The notes beneath the pieces were generated by a model. The model was not told the DNA's origin. It searched no databases and worked only from the letters and a program-made list of their open reading frames with translations. DNA of 64,000 nt from Thermoanaerobaculia bacterium (GTDB lineage Bacteria; Acidobacteriota; Thermoanaerobaculia; Multivoradales; UBA5704): the NCBI GenBank assembly GCA_035995205.1, contig DASYKS010000002.1, positions 51,026 through 115,025 on the forward strand. The letters run 5' to 3'. Position 1 is the stretch's first letter; every line of letters starts with the position of its first letter. The position numbers and the translations under genes were made by a program. Shown one piece after another: positions 7,748 through 63,651 of the stretch.

Positions 7748-7750
7748 AGA

Positions 7751-9550
7751 TCAAAGATAACCGAGCGCTTCGAGCGCCTTCCTCTCCTCCGCGCCGAGCG
7801 GTGCCGAAGCCGTGAAGCGCCTTCTTTCGGCGAGATGCTCGGCGCGCAGCAGCGACCGCAGGTAGCCGGCCCGCACGGGGTTTTCGGCCGCGAGGTTGCG
7901 CGTCTCTTGCCCGTCCGCCGCGAGATCGAACAGCTTGGCCGCGTGGGAGAACTTGCGGCTCCAGGGCTCGATCAGGTGCCAATTCCCAAGCTCGATGCTG
8001 CCCCCCTGGCGCCCTTCATAGTCGAGGTGAGAAAACCTCGGCCCCTCTCTCGTCTCCGGCCCGAGCCGATCGACCCCGCGCAAGCCGGCTCCGGCGGGAA
8101 TGCCGAGCGCCGCGAGAACCGTGGGCATCACGTCGAGATGCGCCGCGGGCGTCGCGATCCTTCGCCCGGCCGTCGCTCCGGGAAGGCGGACGATCCAGGG
8201 CACGTCGAGCACCTCGTGATAAAGCGTCTTGCCGTGTCCGAGCCCGCCGTGCTCGCCGAATTCCTCGCCATGGTCGGAGATCACGACGACCAGCGTCTCG
8301 GCGAGCCGGCCGCGCCGCTCCAGCTCGTCGAGCAGAATGCCAAAGCTGCGATCGATGCCCGCGATCTCGGCGTCGTAAAGCGGCGACATTTGCGCCACGA
8401 GCCCGCGGGCTTCGGGGCGATGCCGGTCGAGCGCCCGATAGATTTCCTCGACCTTGGCGAGGCTGCCGGAGCCGGAGGGGACGTTTCCGGCGAACCGACC
8501 GCGAAGATCTTCCGGGGGCTCGTACGGAGCGTGGGGGTCGATCGCGTGAACGTAGAGGAAGAACGGAGCCGGGCCGCGATCCGGTGCCGAAACCGATTCG
8601 TCGAGCCAGGCGAGCGCCCTACCCCCTAGCGCATCGCCGCGCGCCAATTCATCGAGAAACTCGAAGTGGTCGAACCCCTGGGCGAAGCCGGACGCCGCCG
8701 TAATATGGGCGTTCGCGCTGAACCCCCCGGTCCGATAGCCCCCTTCTTGAAGCACCTCGGCGAGCGTTCGCGCCGCCGGAGGCAAACGGCGGTCGAGGCG
8801 ATTCGCTCCATGCACGGCAGGCGGCAACCCGGTGAGGATCGTCGCGGTCGCGGGTCGGGTCCAGGACGAGGCGGCCGTCGTCCGCTCGAACACGATGCCC
8901 TGCCCGGCGAGAGCGTCGATTCGAGGGGTGAGTCCCCGCGTCGAACCATAGGCGCCCACCCGATCGGCGCGTAGCGTGTCGATCAAGAAGAGCAGGACGT
9001 TCGGCCGCTTCGCAGAAGGCGATTTCGGGGCCGCGGGTTTCGGAGGGGAGGGGTGCAGAGGGTCGATCGAACGCACCACCGGTCGCCGCACGATTGCCCA
9101 AGCCGTCGCGTCCCCTGTGGCGCGAAACGTCCAGCGCACCAGCCGCTCGCCATCCCCGGGAATCTCCCAAGCCCCGCCCTTCGCTCCCGGTTCGAGCCGT
9201 GCGAGCACCGTCTCCGACCCGCCTTCGACCTGCACCAGAATCTCGACCCGCGGCGCGCCGCCGCGCGAGGCGACTCCCTCGATTCCGATCGCCGTCCGCC
9301 CGTGGACCTCCAGATAGCCGTCGATCCGCGCGCCGCCCGCGATCGCGATCCCTTCCGCCACCCTCATCGCAAGGTTCCGGTCGACCGGCCCCGGCGGGCG
9401 CGGTGGTCCGGCAGGCTCGGCCTCCCGCCGTGCCTCGGACAACGGCAGCTCGGCCGCCAAGTCGCGCGCCACTGGCCAATCGCGAGGGGCGGGTCCGCAG
9501 GCGGCGAGCAGGAGGGCCGCGATGAGCGGGCCGAGAGGGCGAAAATGCAC
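7751..9550 (-). CDS. alkaline-phosphatase-superfamily (sulfatase-like) lipoprotein with a roughly 180-aa N-terminal extra domain
   Basis: 599 aa. Lipobox LLAAC. Metal-site motif LFLIDTLRADR, then SSWTRPATATILTG, and further on ISDHGEEFGEHGGLGHG. Confidence 0.75.
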   Translation of the reverse strand: MHFRPLGPLIAALLLAACGPAPRDWPVARDLAAELPLSEARREAEPAGPPRPPGPVDRNLAMRVAEGIAIAGGARIDGYLEVHGRTAIGIEGVASRGGAPRVEILVQVEGGSETVLARLEPGAKGGAWEIPGDGERLVRWTFRATGDATAWAIVRRPVVRSIDPLHPSPPKPAAPKSPSAKRPNVLLFLIDTLRADRVGAYGSTRGLTPRIDALAGQGIVFERTTAASSWTRPATATILTGLPPAVHGANRLDRRLPPAARTLAEVLQEGGYRTGGFSANAHITAASGFAQGFDHFEFLDELARGDALGGRALAWLDESVSAPDRGPAPFFLYVHAIDPHAPYEPPEDLRGRFAGNVPSGSGSLAKVEEIYRALDRHRPEARGLVAQMSPLYDAEIAGIDRSFGILLDELERRGRLAETLVVVISDHGEEFGEHGGLGHGKTLYHEVLDVPWIVRLPGATAGRRIATPAAHLDVMPTVLAALGIPAGAGLRGVDRLGPETREGPRFSHLDYEGRQGGSIELGNWHLIEPWSRKFSHAAKLFDLAADGQETRNLAAENPVRAGYLRSLLRAEHLAERRRFTASAPLGAEERKALEALGYL

Positions 9551-18968: not shown

Positions 18969-21900
18969 TCAGGGCGTCACGTTCACCGAGACCACCGCGC
19001 CGGGATCGTCGATGAATTCCACGCACTCGTGGACCATCTGAAGCCGGAAATTGTAAGGCCCCGGTGTGGTCGGCGCTATGCCGTTGATCTGCAAGGTCGC
19101 CTGCTGCCCGGAGATGAGACTCGAAGCGAGATCGACTCGAACCGGATTCCAAGCCGGGCTTCCGATCTGCGCGAGGCGGTACGCATCGCACTGTGGCCCG
19201 ATCGGGCTCCAGGTGAGGTTGCCGTCATTTTTGACCGTTACGGACGCCGAATAGGGCTGCCCGGCCGCCATGGTAGCCGGTACGTTCTGAGCCACGATCT
19301 GCGCATGCTTCCCACCGACTCGGACCGTGACAGCCGGGCTTGAGGAGCCGAAGAATTCGACGCATTCGTGGACCATTCGCAATTGGAAGATGTAGGTCCC
19401 GGGCGTCGAAGGCGCGATCACCGCAAAGGTCAGGGTCGCCTGAGCGCCGGGTGCGACAGAGGCGGGGAGCTCGGCGCGGATCGGGTTCCAAGCCGCATTG
19501 CCGACTTGGGCGAGCCGATAGGCGTTGCATTGCGGTCCGATCGGATTCCAGGTGATTGTGCCGGTGTTCTTGACCGTCACGTTCGCGAAGTACTGCCGGC
19601 TGGGGGCCATGCTCGTGGGGACGAACAGACTCAGGAATTGCGCGTTCTTCGTAGCAGCCTGGACGTCGACGATGACGCTCGGGCTTGAGGAGCCGAAGAA
19701 CTCGACGCATTCGTGGACCATTTGCAGTTGGAAGGTATGGGGCCCGGTGGTCGAAGGCGCGATCACCACGAAGCTCAGGGTCGCCTGCCCGCCGGAGTCG
19801 ACGGGGGCGGAGAAATCGACGCGAATCGGACTCCAGGCCGCATCGCCGACCTGGGCGAGCCGATAGGCGTTGCATTGCTGTCCGATTGGATTCCAGGCGA
19901 TGCCCCCGGTGTTCTTGACCGTCACGCTCACGGTGTACGGCTGGCCGGAGACCATGCTTGTGGGCACGCTCAGGTTGAGGAACTGCACGTTCTTCGTGGT
20001 GTCGAGGCAGGTGCTGGGCGCGGCGTGGCAGGCTTCGTTGCCGTTCGGATGGGCGACGACCTGGTAAAAGTAGGTCGAGCTCTCGGCGACCGAGCTGTCG
20101 GTGAACGACGATGTCGCAACGTTGTCCGCGATCTTTGCGAAGCCCGCGTTGCAACCAACCTCGTTGCGGAAGACGTCGTAGACCGTTCCAGCCCCCGAGG
20201 GGGTCCAGGACAGGCCGACCTGGTTCGTGCCGTCGGCCAGCGTCAGCGCAGGCACCGCCGGCTGGGAACAACCCCGGAAACAGGTGTTGGCCTCCGGGTC
20301 GGTCGTGCAGGCGATGCCGTGGCGACTGAACGCCGCGAACAGGTTGCATGAATGAGGCGTGCCGTTTGCCAGGTTGCCATCGTCGTCGTCGACCGCCCGC
20401 ATCGTCTTCCACCAGGAGCCGACGTTGCAGCCATTCGAAGTGTAGGTCGGGCCGGTGACGCAAGTGAACGCGCTCGCCGAGGTCGGCCGAGACAGGTACC
20501 AGAGCCGTTCGAGCACGTTCCAGGCGGCCGCTCCGCCCGGGCTGGGCAGGTCGCGGTTGGCGAAATCCCAGACCGCCTCGGTGGGCACGTGGCCCTCGCA
20601 GTGGGCCTCGCCGGCACAGGGGCCGTTGTGGGTGGTGCTGGACAGGCAGAACTGCTGGGTGAAGTTGGCGACCGTATGCGGCGCACCCGAGACGTGCTTG
20701 CCCCAGTCGATGTCGCGCAGCCCCGTGCAGGCGGTGCAGGGGTCGCCGTAGGCGTTGCAGTTGCCGAGCCGGAACCCGGGTCCGACGCAGGAGTTGTGAA
20801 GCGTGAGAGCGGCGACCACGTCGGCGTAGGCCTCGCTGCTCGAGTTGTTCAATCCGTTGCCGTCGTTCTGGTCGAGCCCGTGGCCGTATTCGTGAAGAAT
20901 GAAGCCCGGCTCCTCGCCGCTCGCGCCGCAGTTGCCCCCGACCGCGCGATAGAGCGTAATCCCGTCGCCGTTCCAAAAGCCGTTGCAGGTACCTGTGTTG
21001 TTGACCGAGACGGTAAACTGGCCGTTGAGCCAGGCATTGCCCGGCAACCAGCCGAGGGCGATTTCCTTGCCGCGGTTGACATTGTAGAAGCTGGTGCGCG
21101 AAGAGCGCGTGTTGCCCGCGCCGCCGACTCCCGGCGTGGTGCAATTGTTGCCCGCCGCCGAACCGAACGGCAAGTTGCCCGATGGGTTGGTGGTGAGCGA
21201 GATCGGGCCGCAGGTGTCGGTGATTCGGACGCGCTGCCCATTCAGCGTCGAGGTGAGCGGCGTGCCGCCGTACGTGTAGAGGCCGGCCGAATTCGTGAAC
21301 AGCCCGCCCCCGAGGTCGGCGAAGGGCATGGGGCGGAGTGTCTCGGTGCCCGCCGCCAAGTCCGCCGCCACTCCGCCCGTCGCTTGGGCGTCGAGGTCGG
21401 TGTCGATGAATTCCACGACTTCGCCGGTCGTGGCATCGATGCGCCCGCGCCAGGTGCCGAGGACTCCCTCCCGGCGAAAGGCGATCTCCCAAACCGTCGA
21501 CAGACCGTAGCCCTTGGCGAAATCGAATCCCTCGGGCAGGGCCACCGGCAGCAGGTGGAGCGAGCCGCGATCCAGAATCGTGTCGGCGAGCGGATCGAAG
21601 CCACCAACGTAGGAAGCGAGCGCGGCGTAGGCGGACTCACGGCTGACCTTGACCTCCGGGGCCGCGGCGTCGGACGGTGGCAGTAGCTCGCTGCCCATCT
21701 GGATCAAGTTGCCATGGCCGACGCGGAAGACGATGCGGGCGCCTTCGACGGTCAAGCCGCCGCGCACCAAGTCGAAATCGACCAGCCAGAGCGAGTCGGA
21801 GGCTTTTCCCGAGCGCCCCGGAGAGAGCCGCAGCTCCCGTGCCTTGACCCCGAAGAGCGCCGTATGGTCGGCGACGAACCTGCGCGCGATGGATTCGAGC

Positions 21901-22292
21901 ACGGCCAGGTTGGGCTCCTGGTGGGCGTCGAGCGGTACCGCAAGATCTTCTGTCGTCAGCCGGTTGCCCGCACCGGGAATCCAGGGAATACCGGTGCCCT
22001 CGGCCGCTTCGATGCGGCTGTTTCGGGCGTCGACGTAGGCGGTCCAGTCGTCATGGTCAAGCAGGAGCTTTGCCCAGTCGTCTTCGACCCCGGGGGTGAG
22101 GTTGGCGCGGACGTCATCGAGCGGCTCGAGCGCCTCCCGCGGCTGGAGCCGTTCGTCGGTCCGCACCAGCGCCGCGAACGGACCTCCGAGATCGCGCGGC
22201 AACTGGGCGACGGCGGCGCTCAAGGGAACGAGCCCGGTCCATCCGATCAGCAGCAAGGGGAGGGTAAAAGAGGAACGATGTCGAGCTCTCAT
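18969..22292 (-). CDS. secreted multidomain zinc metalloprotease (gluzincin; FTP/PepSY-like propeptide, Cys-rich catalytic domain, FN3, 3 x NBR1-like Ig repeats)
   Basis: 1107 aa. It has a signal peptide. HEYGH lies at 20880-20894, followed 16 residues later by SEAYAD (HExxH...ExxxD). The FN3-like segment is LSWTPSGAGTVYDVFR...YFYQVVA. There are three C-terminal repeats of about 113 aa. Confidence 0.75.
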   Translation of the reverse strand: MRARHRSSFTLPLLLIGWTGLVPLSAAVAQLPRDLGGPFAALVRTDERLQPREALEPLDDVRANLTPGVEDDWAKLLLDHDDWTAYVDARNSRIEAAEGTGIPWIPGAGNRLTTEDLAVPLDAHQEPNLAVLESIARRFVADHTALFGVKARELRLSPGRSGKASDSLWLVDFDLVRGGLTVEGARIVFRVGHGNLIQMGSELLPPSDAAAPEVKVSRESAYAALASYVGGFDPLADTILDRGSLHLLPVALPEGFDFAKGYGLSTVWEIAFRREGVLGTWRGRIDATTGEVVEFIDTDLDAQATGGVAADLAAGTETLRPMPFADLGGGLFTNSAGLYTYGGTPLTSTLNGQRVRITDTCGPISLTTNPSGNLPFGSAAGNNCTTPGVGGAGNTRSSRTSFYNVNRGKEIALGWLPGNAWLNGQFTVSVNNTGTCNGFWNGDGITLYRAVGGNCGASGEEPGFILHEYGHGLDQNDGNGLNNSSSEAYADVVAALTLHNSCVGPGFRLGNCNAYGDPCTACTGLRDIDWGKHVSGAPHTVANFTQQFCLSSTTHNGPCAGEAHCEGHVPTEAVWDFANRDLPSPGGAAAWNVLERLWYLSRPTSASAFTCVTGPTYTSNGCNVGSWWKTMRAVDDDDGNLANGTPHSCNLFAAFSRHGIACTTDPEANTCFRGCSQPAVPALTLADGTNQVGLSWTPSGAGTVYDVFRNEVGCNAGFAKIADNVATSSFTDSSVAESSTYFYQVVAHPNGNEACHAAPSTCLDTTKNVQFLNLSVPTSMVSGQPYTVSVTVKNTGGIAWNPIGQQCNAYRLAQVGDAAWSPIRVDFSAPVDSGGQATLSFVVIAPSTTGPHTFQLQMVHECVEFFGSSSPSVIVDVQAATKNAQFLSLFVPTSMAPSRQYFANVTVKNTGTITWNPIGPQCNAYRLAQVGNAAWNPIRAELPASVAPGAQATLTFAVIAPSTPGTYIFQLRMVHECVEFFGSSSPAVTVRVGGKHAQIVAQNVPATMAAGQPYSASVTVKNDGNLTWSPIGPQCDAYRLAQIGSPAWNPVRVDLASSLISGQQATLQINGIAPTTPGPYNFRLQMVHECVEFIDDPGAVVSVNVTP
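18972..19994 (-). repeat. three tandem intragenic repeats of 339-345 bp, each encoding an NBR1-like Ig domain
   Basis: Units are 18972-19310, 19311-19649 and 19650-19994. Each ends in ...FQLxMVHECVEF and begins K(N/H)xQ(F/I). The DNA-level similarity is obvious, for example the recurring GACGCATTCGTGGACCAT. Confidence 0.85.
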
Positions 22293-22425
22293 GGAAATCC
22301 TCCGTCGTGGTCCAGCGCGCCGCCCCGGCGCTCGGCATAGAACAATAGCGTTTCCCGACCTTGACGGAAGAGACTCAATTTCTTGGAGAAGGTGTGGGTC
22401 TCAAGGTCGGGCTACGATGGGGAAA

Positions 22426-28723: not shown

Positions 28724-29980
28724 ATGAAGCGTTTCGCCCTCCTCGCCGTCAGCGTGGCGCTCGCGGGCTCCATGGCGACCGCCGATCTCGCCGCCCAGGC
28801 GCCGCGGCGGCCGTTTCCGCGGCATACGGCGTACGCCGCCGGCTCGATCCTCCCCGGTCATCGGTCCCGGCCGCAGCTCGATGCGGCGGCCTTGGCGTTC
28901 TATCGCCAGTGGCGAGCGCGCTATCTGGTCGCCGGCTGCGGCCCGGGGCGCTATTACGTCTCGGTCAACGCGGACGGCAAGTTTCCGGACCCGGAAGTCC
29001 TCTCGATCTCCGAAGGGCACGGCTACGGCATGCTGCTCACCGCCTACTTTGCCGGCGCCGATCCGGACGCGAAAACCGCCTTCGACGGTCTCTATCGCTA
29101 CTTCCGCGACCATCCGAGCGACCGATATCCGAACGTGATGGCCTGGAAACAGCTCGCCGATTGCGCCGACGCGCCGGACGGCCAAGACACGGCGACCGAC
29201 GGAGATCTCGACATCGGTTACGCCCTCTTGCTCGCCGACCGGCAGTGGGGAAGCGCCGGGGCGATCAACTACCTGGCGGAGGCACGAAAGGTGATCCGGG
29301 CGATCCGCGCGGTTGAGCTCCATCCGGTCGATGCGACAATCCAGCTCGGCAGTTGGGTCTCGACCGATCAACCGCGGCATTTCAACTCGACCCGCACGTC
29401 GGACTTCATGCCCGGTCATTTCAAGGCGTTCCGTCTCGCCACCGGCGACGCGCGCTGGGCGACCGCGGCGAATCGCGTCTATGTCCTGGTCAAGCGCATG
29501 CAGACGGTCTATTCCCCCGCGACCGGTCTGCTCCCCGATTTCATCGAAAGGACGAACGCGGTAGCCCGCCCGGCGAGCCCCGGCTTCCTCGAAGGTCCGG
29601 CCGACGGCGCCTACTTCTACAACGCCTGCCGAACCCCGTGGCGCCTCGGTCTCGACGCTCTGCTCTCGGGCGATGTCCGCGGTCGGACCGCGGTGCGAAA
29701 GATCTCCACCTTCCTCCGAACGGCGGCGGCGGGCGACCCCGAACGGCTGCGCGCCGGTTTTCGGCTCGACGGCCGAAACCTTCCCGGCAACGACTACACC
29801 GACCTCTCCTTCTTGGCCCCGGCCACCGTCGGCGCCCTGCTCGACCCCGAGCATCCCGAATGGGTCGAGGGCCTCTGGGACGAGATCGTCAGCGCCCCGA
29901 TCCAAGAGGCGGACTACTACGGCAACACCCTCAAGGCGCTCGCCCTGCTCGCCGCCTCGGGCAATGCTTGGCAGCCGTAG
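28724..29980 (+). CDS. glycoside hydrolase family 8 (endoglucanase/chitosanase-like), secreted
   Basis: 418 aa. It has a signal peptide. Motifs: ISEGHGYGML (the GH8 catalytic Glu motif), DGDLDIGYALLLAD and YNACRTPWR. Confidence 0.75.
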   Translation: MKRFALLAVSVALAGSMATADLAAQAPRRPFPRHTAYAAGSILPGHRSRPQLDAAALAFYRQWRARYLVAGCGPGRYYVSVNADGKFPDPEVLSISEGHGYGMLLTAYFAGADPDAKTAFDGLYRYFRDHPSDRYPNVMAWKQLADCADAPDGQDTATDGDLDIGYALLLADRQWGSAGAINYLAEARKVIRAIRAVELHPVDATIQLGSWVSTDQPRHFNSTRTSDFMPGHFKAFRLATGDARWATAANRVYVLVKRMQTVYSPATGLLPDFIERTNAVARPASPGFLEGPADGAYFYNACRTPWRLGLDALLSGDVRGRTAVRKISTFLRTAAAGDPERLRAGFRLDGRNLPGNDYTDLSFLAPATVGALLDPEHPEWVEGLWDEIVSAPIQEADYYGNTLKALALLAASGNAWQP

Positions 29981-29995
29981 AACGGAGATAGGCCG

Positions 29996-30247
29996 GAAGC
30001 CACCCAGAAATTCGCTGAAGCGACCCGGATGATCGCCGAGGCCATCCGGCCGAACGGTGAAGTCACCGAGGCGAACCCTGAAGCCACAGACTGGGACGGT
30101 GAAGCCACCGAGAAATTCACTGAAGCCACCGAGAAATTCGCTGAAGCCACTGAGAAAACCCCCGAAGCCACCGAGAAATTCACTGAAGCCACGCAGAAAA
30201 CCTCTGAAGTCCCCCAGAAATTCGCTGAAGCCACACAAAGTGCCTAA
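29996..30247 (+). repeat. array 1, forward arm: 12 exactly phased 21-bp tandem units (core GAAGCCACC plus a variable 12-mer)
   Basis: Units start at 29996, 30017, 30038, 30059, 30080, 30101, 30122, 30143, 30164, 30185, 30206 and 30227. The best copies read GAAGCCACCGAGAAATTC(A/G)CT. Confidence 0.9.
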
Positions 30248-30249
30248 TT

Positions 30250-30560
30250 CTTCGGTGGCTCGACCGATTGATCGGTCCAATTCGTTGAATTTCTCGGTGA
30301 CTTCACCCTTGGGTTGGGTGGTTTCAGCCGTTCGATGGGTGGTTGGAGGGAACTTTTGCGCTACTTGGGCGGCCGTTTGTGTGGCTTCAGGGGTTTTCTC
30401 GGTGGCTTCAGCGAATTTCTCGGTGGCTTCGCACGGTCCGTCTGTTGCTTCGGGGCGTTTTGCGGTGCTTCACCCCCGTTTTGCGTGGCTTGGACGCCCA
30501 AACTGCGTGACTTCACGGAAAATTCTGTGTGGCTTCGCGTGAAGCCCCGCGAGGCTTGGA
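30250..30560 (-). repeat. array 1, reverse arm: about 14-15 units of the same family in inverted orientation (period 20-22 bp, more degenerate)
   Basis: GGTGGCTTC-type cores end at 30261, 30304, 30325, 30346, 30367, 30388, 30409, 30430, 30451, 30471, 30492, 30514 and 30536. The segment 30381-30430 is the reverse complement of 30122-30171 (48/50). Confidence 0.85.
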
Positions 30561-30641
30561 CCTTCGGTCGCGGGTTTTGAGAGGTTCCCGAGAGTTGCCC
30601 TCTCCCGGAGACCTCGTTTTAAGATTGGGCCTTCAGCCAAA

Positions 30642-32843: not shown

Positions 32844-35800
32844 ATGCGAACCGATCTCGCCCTGATTTCATTAGACCGTCCCGCAAGGCGCTGGGGTTGG
32901 ACTTCGAGGGCTGGAGCCTGTGCGCTCCACACGCAAAATCGGCTACCGCTCGCGATCGAACTCTGCATAGCCATCATGAGTCTCGTGTTCATATCTGGAG
33001 GATGCCCCTCGAAGGCGCAGAAGTGCGATGCAGAGCTCAGTGTTCTACGGCAGGTTTCAAGGGGCAAATTGATCTTCCTGGGGCGTTTCACCGGAGATCC
33101 TTCTTTTCTGCGGTCCAGAGAAGATCAGAGTGGCGAAAGGCCCTTGTCCCGAGTCGTGGCTGGCCTCCGACAATGTTTGGAGCAGGAAGGTTCACCCAGA
33201 GCGATCCACGACATCGGACTTCTTGACTTCTTTCAAGGACGGTTTCGTCAAGCGGCTCTCTCCTTCGAAGCGGCAGCGGTCGCAGAGCCTTTAAATGCCC
33301 TATTCCTAAATGACCTGGCGGTTGCTCGTCTTGCATTCTCGAAGCTGCACCCCGAGAATCTTCCCGCTGCTCTGGCTGCGGTCGACGAGGCACTTAAGGT
33401 TAAGCCAGCACTGGAAGAGGCGTGGTTTAACCGAGGCGAGATTCTTTCACTTCTTGGTTTGAAGTACCAAGCGGCCTCCGCTTGGGAAACTTATCTTCTA
33501 CTCGACGGATCTTCTTCCTGGAGCGCTGTCGCACGAGCTCGTGAAGCGAACCTCGCCCTGCCTTCAATCGAGGAAACATGGAGCCGTCAGCTGCGCGAGA
33601 TCAAGCAACTAGGCGTGAGCCCCTCAGCCGCGCAAGCGGTTGTAAACAGGTTCCCACACGCAGCAAGGCTCTACGTGGAGGAGGAAGTGCTCTCCGGTTG
33701 GGCCGACGCGACGCTTCAAAATAATCCAGGTCGGGCAGAAACCCAACTGGCAACCGCACGGGCGATCGGGCACGCGGTCTTTAATCGGACCGCGGATCCT
33801 ATGACGCGCGATGCCGTGAATATTATCGATCAAGCGCGGGAGGTAGGGAATTCCGGCCTTCTCAATCAACTAGCCTTGGCCCATGCAGCATTCGGTCGCG
33901 CTATAAAGCTCTACAAGGAGCAGGATCTGGAGGAGGCCCATTCTTTGTTTGTCCGAGCCGCGAGTGGACTTGGAGCTTCGGGTAGCCCTTTTGTAGGTTG
34001 GGCTGAGTTCTACTCCTCTCTCTGCGACCATTACTCTGATTCCGAGGGAGCCCTGCAAGCGTACGAACATCTTAAAGAGACATTCGGTTCGACGCCATAT
34101 TCGACTCTTGCTGCTCGCATCGAGTGGATGCTCGGAACTGTCGAGAGCAACCGTAATCAGCCCGAGGTCGGTCTAAACCATTTCCACGCCGCCTTGAGTC
34201 GCCTCGACTCAAGCATTGGTTTTCAAGCCTCGGCCTTCGTTCACGTTCTCCTTGCAGAAGCATACAAAACGCTAGGTGACCAGGATAACGCCTGGCGGGC
34301 GCGGCTAGCGGCTCTTCCAATGCTCGCTCATTTAGGTGATCGCCGCCGACTGCATGCCGCCCTCTGGGAGGCGTCCGACGCACTTCTTCGGCAGAAGGCT
34401 ACTCGACCGGCCCTCGACGTGATCGAGGAAATGCTGGCTAATGACGAGTTGTGGGCGAATCCGGGCGCATTGGCCGAAGCACTGCAAATCAAGACAGAAG
34501 CGCTTCAGGCTTTAGGTAGATCTCACGAAGCTCTGGAAACTGCGCGGAGGGGCCTCAATTTAGTACGTATGATGCCCCCAAGTGCGCAAAGGGAACGAAT
34601 CGAAGTGGCACTTCAGCTTGCTGAAGGAGAGTCTCTTTCAGCAGATCAACCTCGGCGCGCGATCGAAATCTTAAGCGAAGCTCTTGAGAGCGATCTCAAT
34701 CGCGGGTTCTTCTTTCGAGAGGTGCGCCTCCGAATCGCTCGGGCGCAAGCGGCCGCAGCAATGGGACGGGTGGCGCTCGCCAAGTCAGATCTTCTTCAAG
34801 TAATCGCCGAACAGGAACAAATTCGCCGAAAAGTCGCGGATCGACAGCTGCGACTGAGTTACTTCTCGGGTGTTCAGGCTGCGTTCGACTTAATGGTTAG
34901 CATTCAACTTGCAGGCAGGGATAGTGCCGCTGAGATCCTAGAAATTGCAGAACGAGCCCGCGCCCGCCAGTTTCTTGACTCACTCCTCCTGCTAGATGGA
35001 AGCAGGATCCGCGGTAACGTGGGTATGCAGCCTCAGCGGCTTGCCGAGATCATTAAACACTTACCTCTTCGTACGACGCTTGTAGAATTCTTCGTCTTGC
35101 CAGATCAGTTGGTTGTTTGGACTATACATGCTGGAGTTCTGAGCGAATCTAAACAAAGAGTCGATCGAGAGACACTTAAGGGAGAGGTTCATACATTTCG
35201 CCTTGCTCTCGCAAGGCACGGTACAATTCACGAGATCCAGGCCGCGGGCGCCCGTGTCTTTAACCGGCTTCTGCGGCCTTCTCTGGCGGGACTTCCAAAT
35301 GAATCCCTTGTCCTCGTCCCCGACCGCTTCCTTCTTGATGTGCCATTTGCCGCACTCTACGATTCCCAGAGGCGCCGGTTTTTGCTCGAGGACCGGGAGA
35401 TCATGCTGGCGCCTAGCGCATCGTTTTTTCTCTCGACCGCTGAGAGAGAGCCCGCACCCGAATATAAGGATGGCATAGATGCTCTCGTCTTCGGCAATCC
35501 AGCATTTGATTCGAAGCGTTCAAGAGACCTTTCTCGCCTGCCGGCTGCCGCTGCGGAAGCCGCCGGTGTCGCAGCCCAATATTCGTCATCGCGGCTATTG
35601 CTAGATGCTTTCGCGACACGAGAGGTATTCACTCGCGAAGCGGGGAACTGGAAGGTCGTACATTTCGCTGGCCATGCCCTCGACGATGCCGATACGCCCG
35701 ATCGCTCGCGGCTGGTATTCGCTCCAGATAGAAGAGGTGATCCCGGGTTCCTTTACGCCTCGGATATCGTTGGCTTGCCATTTAGAAAGACTCAGCTCAT

Positions 35801-36101
35801 AGTACTGTCGGCCTGTCAATCCGTTAGTGAGGATAAGGGCCGAGAGGGCTTTTCTGGCCTTGTAGCAAGTTTCCTTTCGGCAGGAGTGCCAGCAGTTATT
35901 GCAAGTTTATCCGACGTCAGAGATCGTGCGGCCCGAGATCTGATGCTTGATTTTCATCGACAGCTTGCGGCAGGAATGCCCGCGGTTGCGGCACTGAGGT
36001 TTGCTCAGTTGAGCATGATGCGTAGGCCCGCTAGTCGATCTCCCGCAGATTGGGCAAGTTTTGAAATTTTTGGCCGTAATCAGGCCAGGAGGGCGCAATG
36101 A
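32844..36101 (+). CDS. TPR-repeat / CHAT-domain (caspase-like) protease; start uncertain (32844 or ATG at 32976)
   Basis: 1085 aa. The long helical-repeat region contains, for example, AWFNRGEILSLLGLKYQAASAWETYL. The C-terminal CHAT domain has the catalytic His in VVHFAGHA and the Cys in IVLSACQS. No signal peptide. G+C is visibly lower than the flanks. Confidence 0.85.
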   Translation: MRTDLALISLDRPARRWGWTSRAGACALHTQNRLPLAIELCIAIMSLVFISGGCPSKAQKCDAELSVLRQVSRGKLIFLGRFTGDPSFLRSREDQSGERPLSRVVAGLRQCLEQEGSPRAIHDIGLLDFFQGRFRQAALSFEAAAVAEPLNALFLNDLAVARLAFSKLHPENLPAALAAVDEALKVKPALEEAWFNRGEILSLLGLKYQAASAWETYLLLDGSSSWSAVARAREANLALPSIEETWSRQLREIKQLGVSPSAAQAVVNRFPHAARLYVEEEVLSGWADATLQNNPGRAETQLATARAIGHAVFNRTADPMTRDAVNIIDQAREVGNSGLLNQLALAHAAFGRAIKLYKEQDLEEAHSLFVRAASGLGASGSPFVGWAEFYSSLCDHYSDSEGALQAYEHLKETFGSTPYSTLAARIEWMLGTVESNRNQPEVGLNHFHAALSRLDSSIGFQASAFVHVLLAEAYKTLGDQDNAWRARLAALPMLAHLGDRRRLHAALWEASDALLRQKATRPALDVIEEMLANDELWANPGALAEALQIKTEALQALGRSHEALETARRGLNLVRMMPPSAQRERIEVALQLAEGESLSADQPRRAIEILSEALESDLNRGFFFREVRLRIARAQAAAAMGRVALAKSDLLQVIAEQEQIRRKVADRQLRLSYFSGVQAAFDLMVSIQLAGRDSAAEILEIAERARARQFLDSLLLLDGSRIRGNVGMQPQRLAEIIKHLPLRTTLVEFFVLPDQLVVWTIHAGVLSESKQRVDRETLKGEVHTFRLALARHGTIHEIQAAGARVFNRLLRPSLAGLPNESLVLVPDRFLLDVPFAALYDSQRRRFLLEDREIMLAPSASFFLSTAEREPAPEYKDGIDALVFGNPAFDSKRSRDLSRLPAAAAEAAGVAAQYSSSRLLLDAFATREVFTREAGNWKVVHFAGHALDDADTPDRSRLVFAPDRRGDPGFLYASDIVGLPFRKTQLIVLSACQSVSEDKGREGFSGLVASFLSAGVPAVIASLSDVRDRAARDLMLDFHRQLAAGMPAVAALRFAQLSMMRRPASRSPADWASFEIFGRNQARRAQ

Positions 36102-37036
36102 ACGAGTATACGCTTGAGTTATCCTTCTCAGGTCTCTGCCTTTTCACGTTTCACGGAGACCGCAAGAAACCAGACGAAGTGAATGTGCTCTTCCTCGCAT
36201 CAGAAGGATGTCACGAAGGACACCAGAATCAGAGCGCTAGTGATCTGCACACCCCACGCTTGACCTTTAGTCCTCAAGACCTTGAGGAAGCAAGCGTTCC
36301 TTATGACCTATTTCCAGATCTTGACGGGCGACAGTTAGCTATTCTGCGTCTGCCGGATCTTCCGATGGAGATCGTTGCCCCATCTAGAAGTGAATTACTC
36401 GCTTGCTGGCGAGATGAAGACAGGTACAATGATCTCCCGAAATCGCCGCCGACTGACTCCGATGAAACTTGGCTTGACTGGATCCCTTCTCTTAGACTGG
36501 TAAACCCTGAGACCCCAATTCCCACGGAGGAGGTTCCTTGGCTCGGACTCCGACCGGTTGTAATACCGCGGTTACGCCTGACAAAAGGGGATCTGAGTGC
36601 CGCATTCTTTTTGCGCGACAGAAACAACGATTACGTTTTTTGGGAATTTAAGGCGAGCGAGTCGGACGAGGCAATCGATTACCAGGCTATGGCCGGGATC
36701 ATCCGTTTAGAAATCCATGGTATTCCCGTGGAGGAGTCGGTTGAGATCGTCGCGGACGACGGGAAGTTTGAAGTCTCACTTCGGCCTCGACGATATCCGG
36801 ACGGGACGGTAGCTGACCGTGTGCGCGCGAGTTTCACGAATCTAGTCTCGGTCGACCCGAGGTTTCCTCCAAACGTTCTCGAACATTTTATACATTTTTA
36901 CGACCTCGTTGAATTCGGGGGGCGTCGGCCTAAGCTGCGAGTTCCCTACGCTCGCAGTGCGCCGATCACATCTGGGACAACTTACTGCCCAGTGAGCACT
37001 CACGGTGGGACTTCCACAGGGAGATGTAAAGAGTGA
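36098..37036 (+). CDS. orphan hypothetical protein (312 aa) in the CHAT-S8 operon
   Basis: Strong SD (AGGAGGG) 7 nt upstream. ATGA overlap with the CHAT gene stop and GTGA overlap with the S8 gene start. No motif that I recognise, and no signal peptide or TM helix. Confidence 0.75.
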   Translation: MNEYTLELSFSGLCLFTFHGDRKKPDEVNVLFLASEGCHEGHQNQSASDLHTPRLTFSPQDLEEASVPYDLFPDLDGRQLAILRLPDLPMEIVAPSRSELLACWRDEDRYNDLPKSPPTDSDETWLDWIPSLRLVNPETPIPTEEVPWLGLRPVVIPRLRLTKGDLSAAFFLRDRNNDYVFWEFKASESDEAIDYQAMAGIIRLEIHGIPVEESVEIVADDGKFEVSLRPRRYPDGTVADRVRASFTNLVSVDPRFPPNVLEHFIHFYDLVEFGGRRPKLRVPYARSAPITSGTTYCPVSTHGGTSTGRCKE

Positions 37037-38397
37037 TAGCGCCTATTCCACGATGCCTTTTGGGCAGTAATCAGCGTCACGCTGTTGACCACTTCGACGT
37101 TGATGGAGACGGGTTTGTGGAGAATGTTGACTTGGTGCGAGCAGTCGGTGCCTATGCCGGGCGGCCGCTGCTAGCACGCTGGACAAAGGAAAGGGAGAAG
37201 ATATTCGGTGCTGTTGCTAACCAGCTAATCGTGAGATTGACTAAGGGCGTCCCGAAAAAAGATGCGGTGTCAATGTTACAGGCTGCGTTGTGTGACAGGC
37301 CACATTTGCGCGATAGAATCATGATTCGTGGGAACACAAAGGATCTGCTTCTCGTCGAGCTTCGATCTACTCCAGGGGATCTTGAGAAATCGACAGATGA
37401 GGTCCCGTATCTGCTTACGGCGCTTCCGCGTCTAAAAGGTAATGCCTATTTCGAAGCTAGCCCCAACTATTTGGTTTTCGCACCTGAAGATATTGTCGGA
37501 AGTGCGACTAGCATAGCGGCAGGGCCGAAGCAGGATGACATTTTGCGAATTGGAGGTAAAGCGGCTTGGGGAGAGGGCGGAAGTACTGACATTCGAGTCG
37601 CCATTCTCGACTCTGGAATTGAAGCGACGCATCCTGACCTGGCAGGGAATATCTACTCGGATTCGTCGGGCGCAATTATTGGAGCGAACTTTTCTCAGAG
37701 CGGATCGCTTAATGACGACAGCTATCACGGTACTTTCTGTGCTGGCATTATTGGTGGCACCGGCGTCAAGCATGTAAATGGTGTTTGCCTACAGGTTTCG
37801 CTGATGCCAATCAAATTCTTGGGCCCAGATAGCTGCGGGTCGATTTATGATGCGATGAGAGGTATCGACTACGCGGTCGCTAACGATGCGCATGTTATCT
37901 GTGCCTCATGGGGGGGCATGCCTTTTGACAAAAACATGCGAGACAAAATCTCTCAAGCTAAGAACAGTTTATTCGTGACTGGCTCAGGGAATTTCACCCA
38001 CAACCTCGACACAGATCCTCCTTACTATCCTGCGAGCTTCGGCCTCCCCAATATGATCACAGTTGGTGGCACAGACAATCATGGTAACCCGATTACATGT
38101 TGGGGTGTGGGAGAGAAGAGTGTCCATCTGCTTGCACCTGGAGAGTCAGTCTATTCTACATTGCCACCTCCATTGCTTTGGGGAAGAGATAAAGGAACGT
38201 CGCTCTCTGCGGCCTTTGTTGCCGGGGCTTGCGCGCTCCTTGGGGCGGTTGCACTTAAGGGCGGTCGCCAATGGGACCCTGCGTGGGTCAAGTCAACCCT
38301 GCTACAACGGGTTTTACCGTTAGGTAGCGCGAAGTTGCTCTGCGTTTCGGGTGGCGAACTCAACCTTGCAGAACTGATAAAATTGCCCTTGCCATGA
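37033..38397 (+). CDS. S8-family subtilisin-like serine protease without signal peptide (N-terminal roughly 170-aa propeptide-like region)
   Basis: 454 aa. Catalytic triad: D in VAILDSGIEATHPDL, H in SYHGTFCAGIIGG, S in GTSLSAAFVAGACA. Oxyanion Asn is in GSGNF. Confidence 0.85.
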   Translation: MIAPIPRCLLGSNQRHAVDHFDVDGDGFVENVDLVRAVGAYAGRPLLARWTKEREKIFGAVANQLIVRLTKGVPKKDAVSMLQAALCDRPHLRDRIMIRGNTKDLLLVELRSTPGDLEKSTDEVPYLLTALPRLKGNAYFEASPNYLVFAPEDIVGSATSIAAGPKQDDILRIGGKAAWGEGGSTDIRVAILDSGIEATHPDLAGNIYSDSSGAIIGANFSQSGSLNDDSYHGTFCAGIIGGTGVKHVNGVCLQVSLMPIKFLGPDSCGSIYDAMRGIDYAVANDAHVICASWGGMPFDKNMRDKISQAKNSLFVTGSGNFTHNLDTDPPYYPASFGLPNMITVGGTDNHGNPITCWGVGEKSVHLLAPGESVYSTLPPPLLWGRDKGTSLSAAFVAGACALLGAVALKGGRQWDPAWVKSTLLQRVLPLGSAKLLCVSGGELNLAELIKLPLP

Positions 38398-60385: not shown

Positions 60386-61855
60386 ATGGCAAAGGCGAAG
60401 AAGAAGACCGGACAACAAACTTCGGCGGGCTTCATGAACTCGGCGGTCGCTCCGGGTAAGGCGCCTGATTATGTTGTCGTGGAGCTGCTCTACGAGGCGC
60501 CGGTGGGATTCACCGCCACGAAGTTCGTGGCGCCCGCCGCTGGCGATACACAGGCCGGTAAGCTCAACGACGTGCTCGACAGGTACGAAATTCAGACGCT
60601 CCGCTCGCATTTCCGGCTGCCGTCCGAGGCGATCCGGTCTCGGGTCGAGGTGGCCAGCGCGCTGCCGAAGGCTCCTTTTGCGGAGACGTTTCCCGACCGT
60701 ACGAAAAAAAAGTTCATCCAGAGCGGATTCGTGCAGGTCGTGCCGAAGCGCGATCAGGACGCCGGGAAAATCGCCGAGGAGCTCAACCGGCAGAGCGCCG
60801 TCTGGAAGGCGTTCGTCGCGCCTCGCCCGGTGCCCGCGGTCGCCGGTTCTGCCGCGGGCAGCCGAAACTTCGAGCCCTCCCAGGGTTACCTCTATTCCGC
60901 GCCCGATGGCATCGGGGCCGCCGAGGTCTGGGATCTCCCAGGGGGCAAAGGCGCCGGCATCACGATCTGCGACATCGAAGGAGCATGGAATCGGCGTCAT
61001 GAGGATTTGCCTACCGGCATCAAGCTTCTCGGCGGCAACATGCTCGATGACCTCGGCTGGCGAGATCACGGCACGGCCGTCCTGGGCGAGATGGTTTCGG
61101 TGCCGAGCTCCAAAGGTACGGTAGGAATCAGCCATGCCGCGACCGCCGTCGTGCAATCGGCCTACTTCAACGGGGTTTACAACTTGGCCGGTGCGCTCGA
61201 CAACGCGGCCGGCTCTCTGAAGGCCGGCGACGTGATCCTGATCGAGCTGCAAGCGGAAGGCCCCAACAAGAAGTATGTCGCGATGCAGTATTGGAACGAC
61301 GTTTTTTCCGCCATCAAGTCCGCGACCGAGAAGGGGATCACGGTCGTCGAGGCCGCCGGGAACGGCGATGAGAACTTCGATCTGGCGATCTTCAAGAATA
61401 CGGGCTTGCAGAAGGATAGCGGCGCGATCGTGGTCGGTGCGGGTGTGCCGCCTGCCAATCACCTGGACTTCGAAGGTTTCGGTGGTATGGCCCCGTATGC
61501 TTCGCTGGGCGCGCCGCGATCCCGGATTTGGTTCTCGAATTACGGCAAGATCGTCAACGTTCAGGCTTGGGGCTGGAATGTCGCGACTCTGGGATATGGC
61601 GACGCGCAGGGCGGCGATTCCGAGAACCGCTGGTACACCTTGCGCTTCTCCGGTACCTCCAGCGCATCGCCGATCGTCACCGGAGCCGTCGCCTGTCTCC
61701 AGGGAAGGGCCAAGGCGAAAAACGGCAGGCCATTGACGCCGGAGAGGGTCAGGGAAATACTGGTGAGGACGGGGACGCCCCAGGAAAAAGGTTCTGGCGC
61801 TCTCCAGAAGATCGGGCCTCAACCGAATCTGGTCAAGGCGATGAAGGAGGTCTGA
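60386..61855 (+). CDS. S8-family serine protease lacking a signal peptide, with a propeptide-like N-terminal region
   Basis: 489 aa. Catalytic triad: D in ITICDIEGAW, H in RDHGTAVLGEM, S in FSGTSSASPIVTGAVA. The N-terminus (MAKAKKKTGQQ) is hydrophilic. Confidence 0.8.
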   Translation: MAKAKKKTGQQTSAGFMNSAVAPGKAPDYVVVELLYEAPVGFTATKFVAPAAGDTQAGKLNDVLDRYEIQTLRSHFRLPSEAIRSRVEVASALPKAPFAETFPDRTKKKFIQSGFVQVVPKRDQDAGKIAEELNRQSAVWKAFVAPRPVPAVAGSAAGSRNFEPSQGYLYSAPDGIGAAEVWDLPGGKGAGITICDIEGAWNRRHEDLPTGIKLLGGNMLDDLGWRDHGTAVLGEMVSVPSSKGTVGISHAATAVVQSAYFNGVYNLAGALDNAAGSLKAGDVILIELQAEGPNKKYVAMQYWNDVFSAIKSATEKGITVVEAAGNGDENFDLAIFKNTGLQKDSGAIVVGAGVPPANHLDFEGFGGMAPYASLGAPRSRIWFSNYGKIVNVQAWGWNVATLGYGDAQGGDSENRWYTLRFSGTSSASPIVTGAVACLQGRAKAKNGRPLTPERVREILVRTGTPQEKGSGALQKIGPQPNLVKAMKEV

Positions 61856-61868
61856 TCAGGGAGGTGGT

Positions 61869-62228
61869 TTGACCCAACCAGCAGTTCCCGCACCGTCGTC
61901 GCCCAAGAGTCTTGAGCTTCAACTCGGGCCGGGATGGCGCTTCGATTCCCGCCGGCGCCGCTTCGAGCAGGAATCGGGAGAAACCTTCTCGCCCTACGGC
62001 GACCTGCCGGAAGGCGCCAGAATCGTCTACAAGGTGCCGCGGCTTGCCAAGGCCGATCCCGCACGGCTTTCCGGTGCGGAGAGAGACTTGCAACGCTATG
62101 TGCAGGTGATTCTGCCCGTCGATGCCCCGGTGCATACCTACCTTGCGCAGGTTCGGGCTTGGCCCTCCGTGGCCGAAGCACAAGGTGGACCTGTGGTCAG
62201 CCTGCCCCGTCTGGGTAAAAGCTCCTAA
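61869..62228 (+). CDS. small protein resembling a subtilase propeptide (I9-like) C-terminal half
   Basis: 119 aa, TTG start 6 nt after a GGGAGG SD. YVQVILPVDAPVHTYLAQVRAWPSVAEAQGGPVV parallels FVQVVPKRDQDAGKIAEELNRQSAVWKAFVAPRPV in the upstream S8 N-terminus. Confidence 0.5.
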   Translation: MTQPAVPAPSSPKSLELQLGPGWRFDSRRRRFEQESGETFSPYGDLPEGARIVYKVPRLAKADPARLSGAERDLQRYVQVILPVDAPVHTYLAQVRAWPSVAEAQGGPVVSLPRLGKSS

Positions 62229-62266
62229 TCGCGCTTGCATGAGCGCCGAGTCGTTTGTCGCCCGTC

Positions 62267-62836
62267 GTTGCGGCCCCTGCCACCGGCCTGTTGACGCGGC
62301 ACCCCGGAGTTGCGACCCAAAGTGCCTCTGTTGCGGCGCGCGCCCCTGCTACTGCAACACAAACCTCCGGTTTCTCGAATACGGGGACCGGTCACACAAC
62401 ACAAATCTGTGTTGCTGCAACACGAGGCGCCACTCCCACAACACAAGTCATCCCGGTCGTGCGCGCCGAAATCACTGTTGCAACACAATGGAGTGGTGTT
62501 GCAACACGAAGCACCGGTGCGCGGACGCAAGAAAGTGGTGCGCGGACGCTACAATCCGGTGGGTAGCGTCCGCGCACCAGTTTCTTGTGTCACAACACCA
62601 CTCCGTAGCGTCCGCCCACCGGTGGGTAGCGTGCGAAAAGTAGTTCGTAGCGTCCGCTCACCACTCGATAGCGTCCGCTCACGGATGGGTAGCGTCCGCC
62701 AAGTGGTGAATAGCGTCCGCTCACCGGTGGGTAGTGTGCGGAAAGCGGTGTCTAGCGTCCGCTCACCGGTGCGTAGCGTGCGCGACGGGGTGGGTAGCGT
62801 GCACGACGGAGTTTGTCGTGTCGTTCAGCCCTTGCG
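62267..62836. repeat. array 2: 27 exactly phased 21-bp tandem units in two mirror-image arms
   Basis: Left-arm cores (GTTGCAACAC / GCGCGGACGC type) start at 62267, 62309, 62330, 62351, 62393, 62414, 62435, 62477, 62498, 62519 and 62540. Right-arm TAGCGTCCGC cores start at 62564, 62606, 62627, 62648, 62669, 62690, 62711, 62732, 62753, 62774 and 62795. The centre is the inverted repeat 62529-62551 / 62564-62586 (22/23). Confidence 0.9.
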
Positions 62837-63495
62837 CCGTTCTCGCCTCACCGTTTCCCTCGTCGGCGAACCGGTGCCGCGCGTCGCGAACGCGGCGAGC
62901 CGCGTCCCGAAACTCCATTCTCGTGTTCGCTCGATCTTCCTTTGAGTTCACGAACCGGTTCTTCGCTTCGCTGAAACACCGGGCCGTTGCGGGACATTCC
63001 TAGCGCGCTTCCCGCGACGGTCAGCTGAAATCCCGAGCACCGCACGGCGGCTTCCGACGTTGCTGCCGGGCCGAAGATCAGCCTTTCCCAAACCGATAGT
63101 GGGCGAACCTGCCACTCGCCTCCGTGGGCGTAGCCCTCGTCGTTGCGGCCCCGTGAAATCTGGTTTAGAGTCCCAACAACGGTCGAGAGAGGATGCCCCC
63201 TCTCGCGGCCGGGGTGATCACCGAATTAGACCTCGGCGCTCACGGACAACCCTTCACTCCCCTTGGCGTCGGTCAAAGCCTTCGCTTTGGCCCTCGCCGA
63301 GGGAGCCTTCCTCCGCAAATCCTGAGGCCGAATGCCGAGCTTCAACAGCTCGGGGTTCTGGAGCCCAGGTGGACCTGAAGGTGGGTCTTCAGACGGATTG
63401 CGCCCTCCGAGACCTTACGGATCAGATCCCTCCGCAGCCCGGAATAGACTGGCACGAGTGAAACCGCTCCTCGCCAAAAATCCGACCTCCCTGCG

Positions 63496-63651
63496 GCAGG
63501 ATCGCCGCTTCTCCGCCAGAATCACTGCTTCTGGCTCCCAATCACCGTTTCTGTCCCAGAATTACTTCGCTTCTTGCAAAATAGCTACTGCACCAGAATC
63601 ACCGCTTCTGTACCAGAATCCCTACTCCTGTACCAGAATCCCCGAAGTGCG
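63496..63651. repeat. array 3: about 8 tandem units of about 20 bp, consensus CCAGAATCACCGCTTCTGTA
   Basis: AATC cores occur at 63500, 63520, 63540, 63560, 63580, 63597, 63617 and 63637. The best units contain the internal dyad CAGAA-n7-TTCTG. Confidence 0.8.

Follow-up and report, generated by a model that had tools for sequence, protein, structure and literature searches.

Plasmid iterons, centromeres of the parC type, and the multi-site ends of Tn7, Mu, and Tn402 consist of 11- to 22-bp protein-binding sites set in helical phase and placed in two blocks, which at the transposon ends have opposite orientation. Short units also build several kinds of interspersed repeat. BrickBuilt, a MITE (miniature inverted-repeat transposable element) from Porphyromonas gingivalis, is multi-copy and intergenic and combines a spacer-less 23-nt minisatellite with a leader, a tail and small inverted ends (PMC4596501); pneumococcal BOX elements follow the scheme boxA-(boxB)n-boxC, with tandem internal modules, secondary structure and slow transposition (PMC3049150); repetitive extragenic palindromic (REP) sequences, together with bacterial interspersed mosaic elements (BIMEs) and REPINs, are associated with RAYT transposases (PMC2817692, PMC3116915, PMC3733652); and fold-back designs are represented by the eukaryotic Foldback, Galileo and Tetris transposons (PMC3573991, PMC4079207). 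Here we followed up two arrays of 21-bp repeat units, array 1 and array 2, which an earlier note made from the letters alone had pointed out in a 64,000-nt stretch of DNA (hereafter, the window) from a Thermoanaerobaculia bacterium (assembly GCA_035995205.1, contig DASYKS010000002.1, positions 51,026–115,025). Array 2, which was noted at 62267–62836, is in our judgment probably one copy of a group of lineage-restricted, non-coding, interspersed fold-back repeats of Acidobacteriota (Thermoanaerobaculia and Holophagales). The group is apparently undescribed so far; a literature search did not find a description of such elements in these bacteria.

The 21-bp period of array 2 stood up to formal analysis. 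Autocorrelation of 62267–62836 was 0.519, 0.538, 0.519, and 0.51 at lags 21, 42, 63, and 84 and 0.20–0.33 at lags that are not multiples of 21, while shuffles of the array (n = 2000) gave 0.265 ± 0.018 at lag 21 with a maximum of 0.326 (z = 14.1), and the highest lag-21 value in any 570-bp window of the 64 kb outside the two arrays was 0.381. Tandem Repeats Finder agreed and split the array into overlapping pieces with periods of 21, 42, and 63. The periodic tract is longer than first described; the interval originally noted is periodic, and the tract around it extends from ~62246 to ~62945, ~700 bases. Its register is free of indels, as had been claimed: the eight GCGTCCGC cores on the plus strand (62566 to 62776) share one position modulo 21, the two on the minus strand (62521 and 62542) have a common phase, and no indels were visible when the units were listed in a 21-bp register. 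A formal scan for more such arrays found exactly two in the window, and none was found in the 15.5 kb of source contig that flank it. The 21-bp repeat-unit sequences are TGAAGCCACCGAGAAATTCAC (array 1) and GTAGCGTCCGCTCACCGGTGG. The sequence of array 2 was assembled from a metagenome, and another assembly (L029) is interrupted within the array, at window position 62357, so the exact number of units is provisional. The short-read contigs L029, L030, and L168 (the first ending at 62357, the other two just past the array) tend to stop there, which calls for caution with unit counts taken from assemblies.

Array 2 starts 18 bp past the stop codon (62226–62228) of an upstream 119-aa open reading frame (ORF), and the unit listing shows its outer left-arm units (62246–62350) to be degenerate and of a GTTGCGRC type. 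Eight further left-arm units follow (62351–62518), of which three are degenerate and the remaining five have a core of CTGCAACAC, ACAACAC, or GTTGCAACAC; TTGCAACAC occurs in this arm with at most one mismatch at 62352, 62415, 62478, and 62499, and the 12-bp palindrome GTGTTGCAACAC (62496–62507) falls within the same segment. The two innermost left-arm units (62519–62560, minus strand by GCGTCCGC matches) carry the right-arm core reversed, as GCGCGGACGC. In the right arm (62561–62836, plus strand), 13 units of GTAGCGTCCGCYCACCGGTGG alternate with a GTAGCGTGCGAAAAG-type unit in a 42-bp super-period, and the palindromes CACCGGTG and CCCACCGGTGGG, the latter 12 bp long at 62615–62626, are included in it. 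The right arm continues through five degenerate units (62837–62945, plus strand, unit listing) in which CG(Y)GT(Y)C is kept in register, and at ~62876–62910 these contain a tail-like GCGCGTCGCG-AAC-GCGGCGAG-CCGCGTCC, that is, a unit, an inverted unit, and a unit, whose likeness to the tail of the array 1 relatives described below was judged by eye only. Both 12-bp palindromes were thus where the earlier note had placed them, as were the GTTGCAACAC and GCGCGGACGC cores of the left side and the TAGCGTCCGC core of the right. Its view of the right core as the complement of the left arm holds for the two innermost left units; the rest of that arm is mostly a self-palindromic variant and not the complement of the right-arm core.

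The arms switch at a central inverted repeat (62524–62591), which an inverted-repeat search resolved into arms of 29 nt at 62524–62552 and 62563–62591, 93% complementary with a 10-nt gap and so slightly larger than the 23-bp repeat reported before. The similarity that had been seen to continue outward from it was recovered as a weaker mirror of 46 nt (78%) between 62483–62528 and 62566–62611, and the ends of the array pair weakly (24 nt, 75%, 62293–62316 with 62883–62906). Array 2 has no unique mirror axis. Symmetry centers recur every 10.5 bp, with 42–46% complementarity over ±280 nt, which indicates that the arms are opposed arrays and not a true long palindrome. Folded as single-stranded DNA, the array reached −166.5 kcal/mol versus −127.1 ± 4.5 kcal/mol for shuffles (z = −8.9), and array 1 gave z = −11.0.

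Array 1 shares this build, as the earlier note had recognized. It lies on the plus strand at 29993–30580, between a GH8 gene that ends at 29980 and an alpha/beta-hydrolase gene that starts at 30642, and consists of ~12 + 12 TGAAGCCACCGAGAAATTCAC units in opposed arms, a center at 30246–30286, and an asymmetric tail at 30530–30580. Its outermost units pair over 17 nt (88% complementary, 29996–30012 with 30520–30536), and the ends also pair in the fold. The suggestion that the two arrays belong to a family of elements was borne out most clearly for array 1, which has 12 relatives in other Acidobacteriota assemblies. Copies of this family 1 were detected by three phased copies of the core (12 loci, with an nhmmer profile over the fetched sequences), and one was reached through a called ORF; including the window they number 13, from at least six assemblies, all of them Acidobacteriota (Thermoanaerobaculia, Holophagales, and others). 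Four lie on four contigs of the metagenome-assembled genome (MAG) SMAG_U11143 (L087, L088, L099, and L132), three in MAG La3_concoct.109 (L089, L113, and L121), one in the Thermoanaerobaculia MAG La6_metabat2.203 (L092), two in a Holophagales MAG (L075 and L101), one in an Acidobacteriota MAG (L117), and the one found by way of a called ORF in the Logan runs SRR13076523-5 (L228). Among the loci of the scan, the core on the plus strand followed within ~300 bp by the core on the minus strand occurred only in Acidobacteriota assemblies.

Complete family-1 copies are ~550–600 bp long and align over their full length at 62–76% identity, with position-specific unit variants; L088, L113, and L117 are incomplete, being cut at the end of the examined stretch or of the contig. 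The order of the arms is fixed in every copy, GAAGCCAC units and then GTGGCTTC units, never the reverse, and a nonrepetitive tail (…GTGGCTTCGCGTGAAGCCCCGCGAGGCTTGG…, …GTGGCTTCGCGTGAAGCCCCGCGAGGCTTGGACC…) is present at one end in seven of the eight uncut aligned copies, the exception being L075. The copies are intergenic, often starting a few bases past a stop codon, with neighbors that differ and an orientation to them that is not fixed. The family is also multi-copy within a genome, with at least four copies in SMAG_U11143 and three in La3_concoct.109.

For array 2, the sole known homolog is L030, likewise from the Thermoanaerobaculia MAG SMAG_U11143; the metagenome contig L168 has the same sequence with one mismatch. 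L030 adjoins an ORF that looks TIR-like and a pair of the antitoxin/toxin-like kind (labels given by eye only), and its occurrence in this different context with the same design identifies a second family. The centers are the best-conserved stretch between array 2 and L030. The GTTGCGACGC-type unit, as in the outer left units of array 2, builds the left arm of L030, which suggests that the GTTGCAACAC variant in the left arm of array 2 may derive from GTTGCGACGC by CG-to-CA changes with loss of the GCGTC core. With that arm largely replaced by a variant unit, array 2 may be a half-decayed copy. A metagenome scan for family 2 returned only L168, already known, and an unrelated direct array from Bacteroidota. 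A third family of 21/42-bp arrays (GGAAGCCGTCCGC; …GGGAAGCCGTCCGC…) is present in L092 at 7650–8000 (contig JBBSBW010000004.1), cut at the end of the stretch. In it CGGTCGCGGGAAGCCGTCCGC alternates with CAACTGGAGGATGCCATCCGC, and its core contains the GAAGCC of family 1 and the CGTCCGC of family 2; this sharing is only a resemblance, and with a half-core in common with each, the third family makes the earlier description of the cores of arrays 1 and 2 as unrelated perhaps too strong. Nothing corresponds to the third-family array at the syntenic place in the window, where the local alignment is complex and the L092 locus is cut short by the end of the stretch.

The pattern of conservation within family 1 points to the unit core. 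In a logo of 153 units, information is high at positions 2–9 (GAAGCCAC), 11–16 (GAGAAA), 19, and 21, and positions 10, 17, 18, and 20 vary almost freely. Array 1 recurs in L092 at the corresponding place beside orthologous genes and is 76% identical there, so this copy was inherited vertically; between the two orthologs the free positions differ at a rate of 0.42 and the others at 0.15, compared with ~0.24 for four-fold sites of the adjacent genes. For the pair formed by the window and L099, the corresponding rates are 0.33 and 0.12. The same core is retained in copies that are otherwise 35% diverged and belong to two bacterial classes. The earlier note had offered binding sites for different dimeric proteins as one candidate. 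Binding sites are plausible and are still the best mechanistic reading, with indirect support from the position-specific conservation of the unit and from the slower change of its core between orthologs; no protein was identified, and the dimeric part of the proposal fits only the CACCGGTG portion of the family-2 unit.

The arms themselves appear to turn over. Runs of identical units (eight in L089), 42- and 63-bp super-periods, and decayed outer units point to ongoing slippage or unequal exchange within arms. In L089 the two arms have been homogenized to different variants, AAATTC versus AAAATC; the relative phase of the two arms differs among family-1 copies; and RNAalifold on nine copies returned a covariation term of +2.44, which gives no support for pairing. 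Arm-to-arm complementarity therefore seems not to be what is maintained.

We next consider whether array 2 codes for protein, since its tract was called as a 207-aa gene in the source assembly (L028; 62322–62945, plus strand; 211 aa when read from the TTG at 62310). On that view it would be a real gene for a heptad-repeat protein, (x-S-V-R-x-x-V)n, and several observations are compatible with this: the frame is open over the whole array and likewise across the right arm of L030, conservation in the family-2 right arm is highest at second codon positions (mean information 1.06 versus 0.66 and 0.80), pN/pS among units in the ORF frame is 0.73 in the right arm of the window and 0.71 in that of L030, and genuine proteins with (E-V-G-S-V-R-E)n repeats are known (e.g., P0073). 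However, the other frames gave a similar pN/pS (0.65–0.79, six frames tested), the left arm of the window reached 0.92, and in L030 a stop interrupts the frame in the left arm. Between array 2 and L030, differences fell on the three codon positions of the ORF as 100/85/88, without the three-fold third-position excess of real genes in these genomes (0.148/0.097/0.319 per codon position for the flanking genes, window versus L092), and the first codon of the heptad changes freely between AGC (Ser) and TGT (Cys) from one copy to the other. The end of the ORF is the end of the array, which leaves no nonrepeat domain.

Homology searches of the 207-aa ORF pointed the same way. Pfam assigned it to no family, the only match being a sub-threshold coiled coil (18 bits versus a cut-off of 40), and a word-indexed search of 5.8 billion proteins gave no match. 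An exhaustive phmmer search of 1.84 billion representatives produced 181 matches, all confined to residues ~60–190, i.e., the right arm, and these are heterogeneous, unrelated proteins of 118–2716 aa whose own heptad repeats include (GTVNTSV)n, (DGVQSLR)n, (GSVRFNL)n, and (EVGSVRE)n; the resemblance is one of repeat to repeat rather than homology, and neither collection held a full-length homolog. Family 1, identical in architecture, has longest open frames without start codons, no consistent start, and no codon-phase bias between pairs of copies (e.g., 57/57/53). A 72-aa ORF called over array 1 had two weak matches only, one of which led to the further family-1 copy L228. With no homologs of conserved length, no nonrepeat parts, and no synonymous bias, we rejected assignment to a class of heptad-repeat protein genes and regard a real gene here as highly improbable; the 207-aa ORF is very probably a by-product of a stop-free 21-bp unit. 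The earlier caution that the open frame is poor evidence of coding was thus well placed.

From these data we propose the following working model for the elements. Each is a stretch of 550–750 bp in an intergenic spacer, with two opposed arms of 10–18 21-bp modules and a short asymmetric end. The arrays would grow and homogenize by replication slippage or unequal exchange, which would account for the identical runs, the super-periods of 42 and 63 bp, and the degeneration of the outer units. Each 21-bp module is most likely recognized by a DNA-binding protein specific to its family, with the conserved module core as the putative site itself, and because 21 bp corresponds to two turns of the helix, the sites would all lie on the same face of it. 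The protein would be either a host protein or, in the manner of a foldback-type MITE, the recombinase or transposase by which the element spreads. In array 2, most of the left arm would have been swapped for a variant unit, and the copy may be partly decayed. A more far-reaching version of this model, which we advance tentatively, would make each family the cis platform of its own protein, polymerizing along one face of the DNA, and the elements the first foldback-type elements of prokaryotes. In that version, which we likewise hold as no more than a tentative proposal, the protein would be a transposase or recombinase or a chromosome organizer, and the families would have codiversified with its paralogs across Thermoanaerobaculia and Holophagae.

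A number of observations weigh against the interpretation of array 2 as one of a group of fold-back repeats with dedicated binding proteins. Array 2 has one known homolog, with one family-2 copy per assembly, so claims at the level of families rest mainly on the family of array 1. The 24% divergence of array 1 between the window and L092 equals that of four-fold sites in the adjacent genes (identity 0.76), which means that much of the element drifts neutrally, and the rate contrast between free and other positions is partly circular, as the free positions were defined on the same family. Copies within one genome are old (62–70% identical), and no recent mobility is evident. The weak three-base conservation of the family-2 right arm, highest at second codon positions, could also be produced by a weakly constrained coding region. 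No target-site duplication was seen by eye at the ends of eight family-1 copies (the window copy, L099, L132, L087, L089, L092, L075, and L101), where no systematic search was made, and the left boundary of family-1 copies is diffuse, so that a sharp one could not be defined. No gene for a DNA-binding protein, transposase, or recombinase was found beside any copy of the families, and no autonomous relative with a transposase was found among the fetched loci, which are 8-kb stretches of fragmented MAGs.

Several of these points are what one would see if the arrays were neutral or selfish hairpin-prone minisatellites without a trans-acting partner, slippage having multiplied a 21-bp unit and template switching having copied it in the inverted orientation. 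Orthologous copies that diverge at the synonymous rate, the decay of outer units and replacement of the left arm of array 2 by a variant, the different homogenized variants in the two arms of L089, and the lack of a partner gene all agree with such an origin, which we nevertheless think unlikely. The arrays would then persist since intergenic DNA tolerates them, and the apparent core conservation would come from homogenization within arrays, an account to which we give a similarly small chance: the 13 copies at unrelated loci in at least six assemblies and two classes keep an 8 + 6-nt core and the order of their arms, most uncut copies keep a nonrepetitive tail, and the core changes more slowly than four-fold sites between orthologs (0.15 versus 0.24). 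The tail and the strong fold-back potential (z of −8.9 and −11) could instead suggest a transcribed element acting as RNA, in the form of a long imperfect hairpin (an antisense or double-stranded RNA, a substrate of RNase III, or a sponge that presents repeated motifs). The family-1 tail contains a small stem (TCGCG…CGCGA) with one compensatory change, followed by a T run in the window copy, and the comparable BOX and BrickBuilt repeats are transcribed (PMC3049150, PMC4596501). Against a function as RNA, Rfam 15 gave no matches at the gathering score across the whole window, and a scan at E < 1 returned nothing meaningful, only generic hairpins such as plant microRNA hairpins far below threshold (35 bits versus a gathering score of 168). 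Promoter- and terminator-like sites were not above chance, the positive covariation term offers no support, the arms drift apart in unit variant in L089, and orientation to neighboring genes is not fixed; we consider an RNA element distinctly improbable.

A spacing of 21–22 bp and grouped, opposed repeats also recall plasmid iterons and parC-type centromeres, and the arrays might accordingly be local regulatory or maintenance sites, either operator arrays for their neighbors or the iterons or centromere of an integrated plasmid or island. Both arrays adjoin variable DNA, with an S8 peptidase pair of patchy distribution beside array 2 and, beside array 1, a GH8 gene that is absent at the L092 locus. 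We find this explanation very unlikely, however, as neighbors differ at every copy, no rep, par, integrase, or regulator gene lies beside the arrays, one MAG holds several copies of one family, the contig has housekeeping genes, and there were no plasmid or phage matches. An origin from phage or plasmid was rejected separately, as pattern scans of viral sequence (two) and BLAST searches against phages (one) and plasmids (two) gave nothing or only chance two-copy matches. The S8 gene is also informative here, since the earlier note had placed array 2 downstream of the peptidase pair and thereby implied a tie between them. S8 homologs 57–78% identical to it occur in 27 genomes of many phyla, and at none of these 27 loci does an array adjoin the gene (only L025 gave a weak lag-42 signal, ~6 kb upstream, which was not inspected). 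With no array beside the S8 gene at these loci and L030 lying in another context, array 2 is not tied to its neighbors, and the implied link to the S8 pair was rejected.

The wider setting is chromosomal, as shown by housekeeping genes (LptD, RuvX, YceG, and a thiolase) on the source contig, a JGI metagenome contig of 143.6 kb, and the window is syntenic with L092 (MAG La6_metabat2.203) at 78–91% amino-acid identity. In the window, the GH8 gene (28724–29980) separates array 1 from a conserved Rieske/FMN-reductase gene; L092 lacks GH8 at the corresponding position, and synteny between the two stops on the tail side of array 1. The GH8 indel and the end of synteny suggest that arrays may sit at the boundaries of variable regions. 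The S8 peptidase upstream of array 2 (60386–62228 region) is spread through Acidobacteriota, Verrucomicrobiota, Proteobacteria, Planctomycetota, and others in a patchy, transfer-like manner; its 119-aa downstream partner is conserved in L001 and has no Pfam family, and the label "I9-like" given to it before is unconfirmed. Elsewhere in the window, 32844–38397 forms a low-GC island (0.51–0.57 versus 0.65 overall) that encodes a second S8 peptidase, an unknown protein of 312 aa, and a protein with TPR and CHAT domains, and which looks like a horizontally acquired conflict or defense-type module, and 19335–19997 holds a tandem duplication of 345 bp (1.9 copies, 83% identical) inside a minus-strand ORF (18969–22400).

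Other short-period arrays were encountered as well. At 63497–63644 in the window, a 20-bp unit, CCAGAATCACCGCTTCTGTA, is directly repeated ~7.6 times with some indels; this array has no inverted arm, lies ~190 bp upstream of a 493-aa ORF without a Pfam match, and could be regulatory or another type of repeat. Three Bacteroidota arrays of 14–16 direct 21-bp units were seen in L035 (1118–1470, Polluticaenibacter), L052 (227–560, Flavobacterium terrigena), and L169 (744–1037), the last a metagenome contig on which the array lies between murE-like and mraY-like ORFs (named by eye). Their units share the GC-rich 10-mer TAGCGTCCGC in AT-rich DNA and have no inverted arm, and these arrays may be BrickBuilt-like minisatellite elements. 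We set aside a cross-phylum meaning for the TAGCGTCCGC core: by a rough estimate chance could explain the sharing, given that the core was dictated by the search pattern and that arrays of 21-bp period appear to be common.

If the interpretation of array 2 as a member of a fold-back repeat group is correct, opposed phase-locked 21-bp arrays would bring to bacteria an architecture so far known only from eukaryotic Foldback-type transposons and would offer a testable case of recognition-site arrays and their binding proteins diversifying into families. Array tracts are at present called as hypothetical protein genes in metagenome annotation and break short-read assemblies, and they may serve as lineage markers. 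They may also mark the boundaries of variable regions, given that arrays adjoin the S8 pair, the GH8 indel, and the point at which synteny is lost. Should the arrays prove neutral, they would simply be another repeat family.

Comparison with known systems helps to place the elements. CRISPR arrays were dismissed, as the units abut without spacers at a period of 21 bp. Iterons, centromeres, and transposon ends illustrate how phased 21-bp modules could work, but they comprise 3–10 sites beside the gene for the binding protein, at one locus per replicon, whereas the arrays here have 10–18 sites per arm at many loci per chromosome and no adjacent partner gene. Plasmid or chromid iterons were rejected specifically because the neighbors are a peptidase, GH8, and a hydrolase, the contig is chromosomal, a MAG holds several arrays, and no plasmid matched; partition centromeres of the parC, sopC, or tubC type were rejected because parA, parM, or tubZ and adaptor genes flank no examined copy. 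REP sequences resemble the elements in being dispersed extragenic repeats with coexisting sequence families and hairpin-forming inverted doublets, and the family-2 unit starts with GTAG and then CGTC, both of which are tags of REP super-families. They differ in being single palindromic units of 20–40 bp in alternating orientation and not head-to-tail arrays in two blocks, and family 1 has neither the GTAG nor the CGTC tag. Membership in the REP/BIME/REPIN class was therefore rejected: units run head-to-tail within each arm, only family 2 has GTAG, CGTC, and a short CACCGGTG palindrome, and no RAYT gene was seen here.

BOX elements are likewise modular interspersed repeats with a variable number of modules, whose large copies create spurious ORFs on both strands, but their module is 45 bp long, the modules all point the same way, complementarity is limited to the ends, and the sequence is unrelated. 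BrickBuilt is also multi-copy, strictly intergenic, and lineage-restricted and has a spacer-less minisatellite body (23 nt there, 21 bp here) with distinct flanking parts; it is a single array in one orientation, whereas here two opposed arms meet at a center, and the Acidobacteriota copies are far more diverged and so far show no evidence of promoter activity. The nearest architectural match is with Foldback, Galileo, and Tetris, in which long inverted arms of short tandem sub-repeats allow the whole element to fold back; those transposons belong to eukaryotes, are much larger, and have target-site duplications and transposases that are known or suspected (of the P superfamily for Galileo); neither feature was found here. 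As for MITEs, the elements are small (550–750 bp), non-coding, and, in family 1, multi-copy, and have terminal inverted repeats (17 nt and 88% in array 1, weak in array 2), with target-site duplications not seen in the eight family-1 copies inspected by eye. Being intergenic, lineage-restricted, multi-copy, and non-coding, with an unvarying build and conserved cores, the elements are best placed among the bacterial interspersed repeats, in the company of MITE-, BOX-, or BrickBuilt-like elements.

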